Source: Pseudolysinimonas sp. | GTDB taxonomy: Bacteria; Actinomycetota; Actinomycetes; Actinomycetales; Microbacteriaceae | Assembly: GCF_049651805.1 (NCBI RefSeq) | Contig: NZ_JBASCU010000005.1 | Span: 8,280 to 72,279 of the forward strand | Direction: 5' to 3' | Length of the DNA: 64,000 nt | Part shown: in pieces, positions 19,184 to 60,176 of the stretch | How positions within the stretch are numbered: position 1 is the first letter of the stretch | Layout of the letters: each line of letters starts with the position of its first letter | Notes under the pieces: generated by a model | Seen by the model: the letters and a program-made list of their open reading frames with translations, nothing else | Databases searched by the model: none | Told to the model about the DNA's origin: nothing | Translations under genes and position numbers: made by a program

Positions 19184-19198
19184 CGCCCCGTCCTCTCT

Positions 19199-19235
19199 CG
19201 CGATATATCGCGTTGCCTAGTCACGATATATCGCG
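19199..19235. promoter_or_regulatory. two AT-centred palindromes, candidate PadR operators
   Basis: CGCGATATATCGCG (19199-19212, perfect) and CACGATATATCGCG (19222-19235), 16 nt or more upstream of the DUF4097 ATG. Confidence 0.5.
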
Positions 19236-19263
19236 AATGACGGGGTGGTCAACACCCGGGTGC

Positions 19264-19371
19264 CTTTCCGTTTTCAGGAGGTTGTGTGGCGGATGTCCGG
19301 AACCAGCCCGATTCGAGGTGACACGGGTCACATCAGCAACTCCTTCCCCTCACCTTCCTGAAAACGGTAAG
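19264..19371. repeat. MITE-like inverted-repeat element, family 1, copy A (intergenic)
   Basis: Starts CTTTCCGTTTTCAGGA and ends CCTGAAAACGGTAAG. Shares termini and a GTGGCGGA(T/A)GTC core with 51428-51536. Confidence 0.6.
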
Positions 19372-19385
19372 TCGGCGGCTAGGCG

Positions 19386-19416
19386 TTGACATTGACGCAA
19401 CGTCAAGTTCTAGCGT
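19386..19416 (+). promoter_or_regulatory. MerR-type promoter with 19-bp spacer containing a dyad
   Basis: TTGACA (19386-19391), dyad TTGACGCAACGTCAA (19392-19406), TAGCGT (19411-19416). Confidence 0.6.
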
Positions 19417-50823: not shown

Positions 50824-51314
50824 TAGTGCGTCGGAACGTAGGCGGCGTAGGAGGCCGCGACGATCTCCTCGGCTTCGGCCTTGTCCCCCCAGCCTTCGGT
50901 CTTGACCCATTTGCCGGGCTCAAGATCCTTGTAGTGCTCGAAGAAGTGCTCGATCTCTTTGCGCTTGTACTCCGGTACGTCGGCGAGATCCTGGATGTGG
51001 TCCCAGCGCGGGTCTCCCGCGGCGACCGCGACGATCTTCGCGTCGCCGCCCCCGTCATCCGTCATCTTGAAGACGCCGACGACGCGCACGTTCATGCCGA
51101 TGCCGGGGAACAGCGGGTACTCGCCGATGACGAGAACGTCGAGCGGGTCGCCGTCGTCGGCGAGGGTGTTCTCGAAGAAGCCGTAGTCGGTCGGGTACGC
51201 CATCGGGGTGTACAGCACCCGGTCGAGCATGACTCGCCCGGTCTCGTGGTCGATCTCATACTTGTTGCGGCTGCCCTTGGGGCACTCGATGACGACGGCG
51301 TAGCTGCTGGACAT
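50823..51314 (-). CDS. ppa: inorganic diphosphatase
   Basis: 163 aa with [11 protein letters not shown]-like [12 protein letters not shown] and DGDPLDVLV motifs. Confidence 0.95.
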
Positions 51315-51356
51315 GACGCTCCTGGTTCTTCGGAAAGGCGGGTCTAACGTTAGTCG

Positions 51357-52466
51357 ATGCCTGATTCCGCTCGACCTCGGCTGACTCCCGCGGTCGCCGA
51401 TGTGCGCCGCGCCGTTCGTGCGGGTCTCTTTCCGTTTTCAGGAAACGGTGGGACAGAAGTGGCGGAAGTCACCTCAGACCTGGGTTCCGAGTCGACATCT
51501 TCCACTTCCTCCCCTCACCTTCCTGAAAACGGAAAGCCCCTCGTGCTCGTCGCGCTGTCGGGCGGGCCGGATTCACTGGCGCTCGCGGCGGCCGTCGCTT
51601 TCGAGGCGTCGCGGGTCGGGGTGCGGGCGGGGGCGGTGATCGTCGACCATCAGTTGCAGAACGGGTCGGATGCCGTGGCCGAGCGCGCGGCGGAGCAGGC
51701 GCGGGCGCTGGGACTCGATCCGGTACGCGTCGTGGCTGCGGACGTCGCGGCCGGGGGTTCTCGGGAGGCGGCCGCGCGCGACGCTCGGTACGACGCCCTC
51801 GCCGCAGTCGCTGCCGAGATGGGCGCCGGGGCGGTGCTGCTCGGCCACACCCTCGACGACCAGGCCGAGACTGTGTTGCTCGGGCTCGCACGCGGCTCGG
51901 GCGGGGGGAGTCTGCAGGGCATGGCGCCGGTGGCGGGGCTGTACCGCCGGCCGCTGCTCGGCATCCGGCGCTCGACCACCGTGCAGGCCTGCGCCGATGG
52001 GGGGCTGGAGGCGTGGGCCGACCCGCACAACGCCGCCCCCGCCTACACGCGGGTGCGGGTGCGCAACACCGTGCTGCCCGTGCTCGAAGCCGAACTCGGG
52101 CCGGGGGTCGCCGAGGCGCTCGCCCGCACCGCGGAGCAATTGCGGGAAGACGAGGATGCCTTCGCCACGATGATCGATGAGGTCGCCGAAGAACTCGCGG
52201 AACACATCGACTCCGGGATCGCCGTGCCCGTGGCCGTGCTCGCCGCGAATCCGGCGGCGCTGCGGCAGCGCATCATCCGCTTCGTGGTGCAGAGCGAGTT
52301 CGGGGTGTCACTCAGCCGCGCCCACACTCTCGAGATCGCGCGGCTCGTCACCGACTGGCACGGGCAGGGGCCGCTCGACGTTCCGGGAATCTCGATCGCG
52401 CGGGCCGGTGGCAGAATCGAGTTTCGAGCACGAGTCGCTGAGGAGCACGCGGATGGACACGACTGA
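51357..52466 (+). CDS. tilS: tRNA lysidine(34) synthetase
   Basis: PP-loop SGGPDS (51558-51575) and TilS-like body. Carries a 36-aa N-terminal insertion encoded by the family 1 element. Confidence 0.85.
51428..51536. repeat. MITE-like inverted-repeat element, family 1, copy B (inside the tilS reading frame)
   Basis: CTTTCCGTTTTCAGGAA ... TTCCTGAAAACGGAAAG, a perfect 17-nt terminal inverted repeat. Coordinates anchored by codon arithmetic from the tilS ATG. Confidence 0.6.
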
Positions 52467-59998: not shown

Positions 59999-60006
59999 CC
60001 TTCTCC

Positions 60007-60169
60007 CCTCGGTGGTCGAGTAGCGCCCGCAGGGCGCGTGTCGAGACCCTCCCCCCTCGGTGGTCGAGTAGCGCCCGCAGGGCGCGTGTCGAGACCCCAC
60101 CAGCGAGTAACCCGGCGGCGGGGTCTCGACACGCGCGCCGCTACGCGGTGCGCTACTCGACCACCGAGG
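60007..60169. repeat. cluster of three REP-like family 2 units (two direct, one inverted)
   Basis: Units at 60007-60049 and 60055-60097 are identical 43-mers. The inverted unit at 60121-60169 can pair with unit 2 to form a long hairpin. Confidence 0.7.
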
Positions 60170-60176
60170 TCAGAAC

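Follow-up and report, generated by a model that had tools for sequence, protein, structure and literature searches.

The tilS locus and its palindromic element

The window, that is, the whole 64-kb stretch of DNA analyzed here, contains the gene tilS, which encodes tRNA(Ile)-lysidine synthetase and carries a palindromic element between its first codons and those of the PP-loop. The features that the argument relies on are listed below.

51357..52466, + strand: tilS, tRNA(Ile)-lysidine synthetase, 369 aa with the insert; shares 14 nt with the start of hpt (52453)
51357..51428, + strand: codons 1-24 of tilS, helix alpha1; upstream of the element, constrained and modelled as a helix
51428..51536, no strand assigned: family A palindromic element, 109 nt; residues 25-60 in the tilS frame
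51428..51444, + strand: left terminal inverted repeat, CTTTCCGTTTTCAGGAA; unchanged in all five tilS copies, third codon positions included
51445..51519, + strand: variable interior, G-rich in its 5' arm and C-rich in its 3' arm, over which the hairpin continues with imperfect pairing
51520..51536, + strand: right terminal inverted repeat, TTCCTGAAAACGGAAAG; holds the Shine-Dalgarno (SD)-like GGAAAG, 7 nt 5' of GTG 51543
51543..51545, + strand: GTG, codon 63 of tilS, an alternative start picked by some gene callers (e.g. for P0001) and rejected here as the normal start
51558..51575, + strand: PP-loop SGGPDS, residues 68-73, at the C-terminal end of strand beta1
19264..19371, no strand assigned: second family A copy, 108 nt, intergenic, between divergent genes and upstream of a MerR-like ORF

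The gene product matches Pfam PF01171 over residues 63-237 (E 9.6e-35) and PF09179, the TilS substrate-binding domain, over residues 292-354 (30.7 bits vs a cutoff of 21), and scores 135.4 bits against TIGR02432 (cutoff 93.6). The neighbouring genes are ppa, on the opposite strand, and hpt and ftsH downstream, and this gene order is kept in the relatives that were fetched.

The right terminus of the element is the exact reverse complement of the left one, with 75 nt lying between them, which confirms the 109-nt unit with a perfect 17-nt terminal inverted repeat reported in the preliminary description of this locus. The match to the intergenic copy at 19264-19371 proposed there also holds, in that the two copies align at both termini and partially in the interior. 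With up to three mismatches allowed, the terminus pattern occurs four times in the 64-kb window, precisely at both ends of both copies, compared to zero occurrences expected by chance (100 shuffles). Folding predictions give a long hairpin on either strand, with −53.4 kcal/mol (z −5.6) for the + strand and −62.4 kcal/mol (z −6.4) for the − strand. An Rfam 15 scan of the whole window at the gathering threshold returned three tRNAs only, leaving the element unmatched, and a sigma-70 promoter scan of positions 51200-51700 gave no candidate.

In the tilS frame, the element extends from the third base of codon 24 through codon 60; with two extra bases it makes up 111 nt, or 37 codons, and its end is separated from SGGPDS by seven codons (PLVLVAL). 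The coordinates and the ORF thus agree with the placement first given, between codons 24 and 61 and seven codons before the PP-loop motif. The accompanying statement that the element is open in the tilS frame and interrupted by TGA elsewhere stands in a refined form: two of the three + strand frames are open throughout, and a single one contains TGA. Because of this, and because copies outside tilS have on average 1.77 of the six frames open, an open frame in one sequence is weak evidence of translation. It is the comparative data, rather than openness in one sequence, that carry the argument for read-through.

Family A repeats in Microbacteriaceae

The interpretation of the element as an inserted repeat depends on the existence of other copies. 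In addition to the second copy in the window, a scan with the terminus pattern (CCGTTTTCAGGA, then 60-90 nt, then TCCTGAAAACGG) detected 23 loci in 7 MAGs, with one genome per bacterial species included; the core had to match exactly, and these counts are lower bounds. Nearly all of the 23 loci are in MAGs labelled Pseudolysinimonas, Schumannella or Microbacteriaceae, and three MAGs have at least five, at least six and at least eight exact-core copies, respectively. One family A copy was observed in a MAG labelled Rudaea.

The full termini common to the aligned copies are (C)TTTCCGTTTTCAGGA(A) and its complement, and no similarity extends beyond them into the flanks. The terminal inverted repeats are 17 nt long, perfect in the tilS copy and with one or two mismatches in some of the others. 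The copies fall into two size groups, of 98/99 nt and of 107/108/109 nt. Their interiors diverge strongly, even inside one genome, although the termini are nearly identical; when the termini are removed, the interiors still tend to fold (mean z −1.74, with z < −2 in 13 of 27 copies). No direct repeats or target-site duplications are visible around the 25 aligned copies.

A census of the copies, including any that would be read in frame elsewhere, had been suggested as a check, and it reveals a dispersed family in which all 22 copies outside tilS are intergenic and none is within a coding region. Ten of these 22 sit 0-11 nt from the stop codon of a neighbouring gene; several fill the spacer between co-directional genes, and a few are located between divergent genes. 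A candidate for a second in-frame copy, L007 3269-3376, was ruled out, being a case of stop loss in trkA/ktrA with reading into the antisense strand of proC; at the orthologous locus L018, a stop codon precedes the element.

The scan of viral contigs for family A produced 0 matches, the BLAST search of plasmids with the element found no match, and neither of these searches revealed an insertion sequence with family A termini. In the literature, we found no account of family A, nor any report of tilS insertions or of MITEs from Microbacteriaceae.

Selection on the codons around and within the element

The same 109-nt element is present at the same site in four further tilS loci, of which L012 and L014 came from the element scan and L107 (P0002) and L108 (P0010) were found via protein homology. 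All five filled alleles, that of the window included, have exactly 37 codons separating L24 from L62, and neither indels nor stop codons occur there. The three segments of the gene differ in their pooled substitution patterns as follows.

N-terminal 24 codons: pooled pN/pS 0.085; variable sites at codon positions 1/2/3, 1/0/11
Insert, 37 codons: pooled pN/pS 0.77; variable sites of the interior 10/11/16, over 24 codons
Gene body: pooled pN/pS 0.265; variable sites 68/60/181, over 306 codons

The helix alpha1 segment shows little or no variation among 23 orthologues, whether or not they carry an insert, in accord with the earlier view that the flanks of the element are those of an ordinary TilS N-terminus, and the N-terminal helix is present in all 70 actinobacterial tilS loci examined. 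Judging from the substitution ratios, the inserted peptide drifts almost neutrally, and its sequence is not a conserved protein feature. Conservation of the 36 residues as protein would speak against an inserted repeat. Instead, orthologues that are about 90% identical lack the insert, its pN/pS is 0.77, and its termini are conserved as nucleotides.

These data bear directly on the location of the translation start. The preliminary description left room for initiation at GTG 51543, in which case the element together with the 24 upstream codons would become a structured 5' leader, and TilS would be made without helix alpha1. The SD-like GGAAAG 7 nt upstream of this codon fits such a start, as do the public annotations, in which the JGI and NCBI callers chose the GTG or a nearby codon for P0001, P0025, P0033 and P0068. 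However, L107, L014 and L108, three of the five filled orthologues, have GTC at codon 63, and no alternative start is conserved in the interval from the element to the PP-loop. Moreover, the GGAAAG of the right terminus is paired with CTTTCC in the predicted hairpin, and the insert has kept its frame and acquired no stop in five lineages. The upstream codons correspond by homology to helix alpha1 in every actinobacterial TilS examined, and all but one of their 12 variable sites are third codon positions. The constraint on the upstream codons and their homology to the helix, along with GTC at codon 63 and the stop-free frame, indicate that these codons are translated in the element-bearing lineages; being translated as part of TilS, they imply that the ribosome reads through the element. 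We therefore consider it very improbable that GTG 51543 is the normal start. Nevertheless, some internal initiation at this codon may occur in the window strain, given the SD-like motif and the public gene calls that begin at the GTG (P0001 and P0068).

The right end of the element mimics a ribosome-binding site, and several TilS models in the public protein set (P0001, P0068 and P0029) are truncated because the callers start downstream of the element or even inside it.

Filled, empty and footprint alleles

The TilS relatives in the protein database fall into three length classes, of about 330-339, about 356-375 and about 300-311 aa, the last of which results from starts placed downstream by the gene callers. 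In orthologues that are about 90% identical outside the insert, the linker is short and reads LPAEG or LPADG. At the empty site of L024, the sequence is CGT TCT TCC CTC CCG GCG GAG GGG CTC GTA, encoding RSSLPAEGLV, and L025 is similar. The filled site has 111 nt where the empty one has 12 nt and is thus 99 nt longer; the comparison of the two identifies neither a clean junction nor a target-site duplication. A replacement of 12 nt by 111 nt that leaves no duplication is not a simple insertion, a point that counts against the model given in the Discussion.

A third type of allele, the footprint found in L112 (P0028), keeps the right terminus alone, CTTCCTGAAAACGGAAAG, in frame. This locus reads TGT CTC CTT CCT GAA AAC GGA AAG CCA CTC GTC, with the peptide LLPENGKP, and represents an in-frame 93-nt deletion derivative that is sister to the filled P0002. 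Accordingly, the alignment of TilS orthologues and the search for an empty site, both proposed at the outset, recovered empty alleles (L024 and L025) as well as a footprint (L112). The footprint L112 and the empty L024 come from one metagenome sample.

In the gene body, the nucleotide distance of the window allele is 0.115 and 0.143 to the empty alleles and 0.19-0.21 to the filled ones; over about 100 nt of 5' codons and element start, the window differs by 0.058-0.081 from the filled alleles and by about 0.15 from the empty ones. In a neighbour-joining tree of 116 TilS sequences, the alleles filled with family A emerge among the short ones at five or more positions. When the five filled lineages are compared with one another, the divergence of the insert, expressed as difference counts over 111 nt, is 0.13-0.28, compared to 0.14-0.21 for the gene body, and the tilS copies are far closer to each other than to any copy outside tilS. 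Because the divergence of the insert matches that of the gene body, the insert is as old as the filled lineages, and this match, combined with the mutual likeness of the tilS copies, makes a single old insertion likely. We thus favour, on the basis of these sequence comparisons, a scenario in which one old insertion was likely followed by loss and/or by exchange of alleles through recombination; repeated gain of the insert is also possible.

Predicted structure of the inserted segment

The AlphaFold2 model of the 369-aa protein has a mean pLDDT of 80.8. In its N-terminal part, a helix spans residues 11-27 (pLDDT 85-95). Residues 28-61 adopt no secondary structure, and pLDDT falls below 50 over residues 31-55; strand beta1 then occupies residues 62-67, just ahead of the PP-loop. 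The best Foldseek matches of the model are TilS crystal structures, namely 2e21_B (E 7.7e-17, TM 0.65/0.75), 2e89 and 1wy5 from Aquifex, 3a2k from Geobacillus and 1ni5 from E. coli. Because beta1 of the Geobacillus enzyme begins at residue 20, the insert lengthens the alpha1-beta1 connection. The added segment is rich in Ser, Thr, Gly, Glu and Pro and, in the model, is apparently a disordered loop.

In alpha/beta folds such as that of TilS, nucleotides bind at the C-terminal ends of the strands, on the PP-loop side. The insert is at the N-terminal end of beta1 and is presumably located, from general structural knowledge, at the edge of the sheet opposite the ATP site of the PP-loop. Structure prediction had been suggested as a way to see whether the 36 residues form a surface loop away from this site: a disordered loop is indeed what is modelled, and its position away from the ATP site would follow from the general architecture of the fold.

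Conservation of the termini within tilS

The termini and the interior of the element evolve differently inside the coding region. Among the 34 terminal bases of the tilS copies, only one site varies over the five lineages, and none of the third codon positions within the termini is variable, compared to about 59% in the gene body; these values are inflated by the recovery of L012 and L014 through exact terminus matches, and the conservation also holds in the three loci that were found independently. The interior substitutions mostly break pairs of the hairpin. Structure-preserving evolution of the interior is not supported by covariation among the five tilS copies, with 1 of 44 pairs compensatory. 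The combination of invariant termini with a pair-breaking interior points to constraint on the nucleotides of the termini, as opposed to the peptide or the whole stem. Such constraint could possibly result from recognition by a protein, from a role at the RNA level or from gene conversion by other copies.

It is conceivable that the tilS copy has been co-opted, such that the hairpin or the termini keep a selected, sequence-specific role, with the peptide as a by-product. Possible roles of this kind are a cis-acting RNA structure or a protein-binding site that tunes tilS-hpt-ftsH, assuming that these genes are co-transcribed. Apart from the termini themselves, this reading draws on the hairpin that the interior keeps, on the different palindromes that occupy the same linker in other Microbacteriaceae (see below) and on the defined, gene-adjacent places of family A elsewhere, exemplified by the copies that lie within 11 nt of a stop codon. 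However, the empty and footprint alleles of close relatives imply that the insert is dispensable, the interior changes are of the pair-breaking type described above, and the element has no counterpart in Rfam. Furthermore, gene conversion or recognition by a transposition protein could explain the conserved termini equally well. On balance, we regard co-option as quite unlikely, and favour an inserted repeat that the enzyme tolerates.

Other palindromes at the alpha1/beta1 linker

The length of the alpha1/beta1 linker varies from 8 to 52 aa across Microbacteriaceae. Over 70 tilS loci, all linkers of at least 34 aa contain a long inverted repeat (score 9-21), and no linker of 23 aa or less has one (score ≤7). 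The palindromes found at this position, other than family A, are the following.

L026: family B, left arm CGTCGGAAACTCAGGAGATCCGGT, span 79 nt
L030: family B, left arm CGTCGGGAGTTCAGGAC, span 88 nt
L035: family B, left arm TGTCGAAAATGCAGGAGATTC, span 88 nt
L109 (Rhodoglobus): family B, left arm CCAAATGCAGGAGATT, span 80 nt
L110: family B, left arm CGAAAATGAAGGAGAT, span 82 nt
L111: family B, left arm GGACGAATGACGGAG, span 96 nt
L029: unrelated palindrome, left arm CGTGCCGACTACATGGTCAA, span 79 nt
L061: another type of palindrome, left arm TGAGGTTCTCGAAGG, span 43 nt

The variation in linker length would also fit a lineage-specific extension of TilS that is neither mobile nor repeated and is palindromic by accident. 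However, the same termini bound the 22 copies outside tilS in several genomes, so that the copy census already contradicts this explanation, and the strict association of long linkers with inverted repeats argues against it as well; we find it scarcely credible.

Families A and B share a CAGGA/TCCTG core, which is part of CCGTTTTCAGGAA in family A and of CGAAAATGCAGGAGAT and its variants in family B. Within family B, the core is present in L026, L030, L035 and L109 and altered in L110 (GAAGGAG) and L111 (GACGGAG). The differences between the family B arms are matched on both arms (GCAGGAG/CTCCTGC, GAAGGAG/CTCCTTC and GACGGAG/CTCCGTC). All six family B loci are read in one phase, xxA GGA ... 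CCN, and in L026 and L110 the spacing to CTC GTG equals that of the window copy. Family B was not found outside tilS in about 0.9 Mb of fetched loci, which are mostly tilS neighbourhoods, and the scan of viral contigs yielded 0 matches for this family.

The tilS linker thus harbours at least three unrelated types of palindromes. Most simply, this can be read as the linker being among the few positions of an essential gene that tolerate insertions. A stronger version, which we consider rather unlikely, is that the linker serves as a landing or homing site for a superfamily of palindromes in Microbacteriaceae, or else that the hairpin has come to serve tilS, hpt and ftsH, which run in the same direction, as a cis-regulatory structure. 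The occurrence of families A and B at one position and in one phase in different genera, the scatter of filled alleles among empty ones on the TilS tree and the invariance of the termini inside tilS are all consistent with a landing site. If true, this could reflect site-directed insertion or the spread of filled alleles by gene conversion.

Discussion

Taken together, the results presented here are best accommodated by a simple model, which we consider highly probable: a family A repeat was inserted in the alpha1/beta1 linker of TilS and is translated as a tolerated, unstructured loop. Under this model, a non-coding palindromic repeat of about 98-109 nt, with the termini CTTTCCGTTTTCAGGAA and TTCCTGAAAACGGAAAG, would have entered the linker from a family with copies scattered over the genomes of Pseudolysinimonas, Schumannella and related Microbacteriaceae. 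Translation would still begin at the ancestral ATG 51357 and proceed through the element, yielding a TilS protein with an unstructured loop at the N-terminal end of beta1. The enzyme would tolerate this loop, the peptide sequence itself being free from selection. The insertion is old and polymorphic among relatives, in which filled, empty and solo-terminus footprint alleles are found. The initial proposal of a palindromic insertion tolerated within an essential tRNA-modification enzyme is supported by the conservation of the reading frame, the contrast in pN/pS between the segments of the gene and the existence of empty alleles. We infer that the TilS protein with the insert is made and active, and that the loop is harmless owing to its position. 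A predicted hairpin of −53 kcal/mol inside a coding region could hinder the ribosome, and this counts against read-through.

In-frame fusion of small palindromic repeats is already known; the element family, the host clade and the host gene are new. The closest precedent is provided by the Rickettsia palindromic elements (RPEs), palindromic repeats of about 100-150 bp without a transposase that are found in frame in conserved housekeeping genes and are translated as extra surface segments, without obvious target duplications (PMC10969869; PMC3184786). Similarly to RPEs, the tilS copy of family A is an in-frame, non-coding hairpin repeat that is tolerated in the form of extra residues. However, RPEs have entered dozens of unrelated genes, whereas tilS is the only gene hit among the 27 copies of family A. 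In addition, the RPE-encoded peptide is conserved, whereas the peptide encoded by family A in tilS drifts and the termini are conserved instead. Family A has no sequence relationship to RPEs, and its host is a free-living, high-GC actinobacterium, in contrast to the reduced intracellular genomes that host RPEs. The comparison with RPEs made in the preliminary description therefore survives as an analogy and does not extend to homology, to the range of genes affected or to conservation of the peptide.

Family A also resembles bacterial MITEs, such as Coxiella QMITE1/2, ERIC, Correia and the pneumococcal SPRITE/BOX elements, which are small, have terminal inverted repeats, form hairpins and are mostly intergenic (PMC5896051; PMC3184786). 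In some instances, elements of this type have become joined in frame to ORFs or have lengthened them (PMC5896051; PMC3184786). The resemblance lies in the small size of family A, its non-coding nature, its 17-nt inverted termini and the presence of several dispersed copies per genome. Unlike full-size QMITE2 copies, which have flanking direct repeats of 7-9 bp (PMC5896051), the aligned family A copies have no target-site duplications. Also unlike in MITEs, the interior of family A is unusually variable between copies of one genome.

REPs, another class of small bacterial repeats, are linked to RAYT transposases. Like REP and BIME sequences, family A is located mostly just 3' of stop codons or in short operon spacers. 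However, with about 100-109 nt and 17-nt termini, it is larger than REPs, which span about 35 bp (PMC3184786).

The present findings indicate that palindromic repeats can lengthen enzymes that are essential and conserved, and that this is not confined to the reduced genomes of Rickettsia and Coxiella but extends to free-living, high-GC Actinobacteria. Several aspects go beyond the routine: the host clade, the essential gene, the coexistence of three allele types, and the conservation of terminus nucleotides in a coding region combined with the recurrent use of one linker. Given that filled, empty and footprint alleles are all present in natural populations, the gain, tolerance and decay of an insert become directly comparable. 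Moreover, because the linker collects unrelated palindromes in several genera and the termini resist change within a coding region, tilS appears well suited for distinguishing between targeting, maintenance by conversion and function as explanations for such repeats.

The start of tilS

The tilS ATG is directly preceded by the sequence CTAACGTTAGTCG, which shows no difference between the window and the five loci compared with it: alleles that carry the family A insert (the window, L014 and L107), empty alleles (L024 and L025) and the footprint allele that retains only the right terminus (L112) all share it. A variant of this sequence is present in L026, where the tilS linker holds another palindrome. 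Within CTAACGTTAGTCG, the hexamer TAACGT occupies positions −12 to −7, a placement that would fit a −10 box of a leaderless tilS mRNA; a scan for the sigma-70 consensus around the tilS start found no promoter.

Public gene calls for filled alleles often begin further downstream, either with the first codon past the element or within it at a GTG or ATG, likely because the right terminus of the element, ACGGAAAG, resembles a ribosome-binding site. N-terminally truncated models account for 24 of the 116 TilS relatives (21 classed as 'trunc' and 3 as 'A_trunc'), not every one of which necessarily bears the element.

Features at the tilS start
51341-51356: CTAACGTTAGTCG, directly before the tilS ATG
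51520-51545: region of downstream start calls (proteins P0001, P0025, P0029, P0033, P0044, P0050 and P0068)

Linker residues in TilS

In nearly all Microbacteriaceae TilS alleles with an insert or a linker of medium length, a proline immediately precedes LVLVAL (xPLVLVAL); the short alleles read LPxxG-LVLVAL. Some linkers comprise 14-23 amino acids and are devoid of inverted repeats (for example, L033, L041, L043 and L046), and these may be decayed leftovers of older insertions.

Other palindromes in the window

Inverted repeats also occur elsewhere in the window. One site is a dense nest that belongs to a sequence family different from family A and is probably a further palindromic repeat family. 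Another, just upstream of the intergenic family A copy, consists of two copies of a palindrome, flanked by a minus-strand gene and a MerR-like ORF (start at 19415); these copies resemble operator sites.

Palindromes outside family A
19198-19240: CGATATATCGCG, two copies
60001-60175: CCTCGGTGGTCGAGTAGCGC and GCGCGTGTCGAGACCC, each present twice, with one complement of each

Distribution of family A

A second family A copy in L021 (3150-3233), about 1 kb from the first, lacks the outermost terminus bases, and a related element of 98 nt, GTACCGTTCTCAGGATC, was found in a more distant actinobacterium (L049, 5810-5907) in which tilS has no insert. A single copy (L005, 2641-2747; JBDUEI010000079.1) comes from a MAG labelled Rudaea sp., that is, assigned to a gammaproteobacterium; this could reflect either an actinobacterial contig contaminating the bin or transfer.

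In a Pseudolysinimonas MAG (L007, 2585-4225), a trkA/ktrA-like gene is missing the stop codon found in its Schumannella orthologue (L018, 1212-1883), and its frame continues across a family A element and on into proC, in antisense; this represents either a genuine stop-loss extension or an assembly error.

For 10 of the 22 non-tilS copies in loci L001-L023, one boundary of the copy is 0-11 nt away from an adjoining gene's stop codon, and in several cases a copy occupies the whole spacer between co-directional genes.

Examples of family A copies 0-11 nt from a stop codon (locus, position)
L008, 637
L009, 7183
L010, 3390
L017, 3797
L020, 6539
L021, 2104
L023, 1778

These placements suggest that the 3' ends of genes are a favoured niche of family A, or that the element serves as a terminator or stabiliser that lacks a U-tract.
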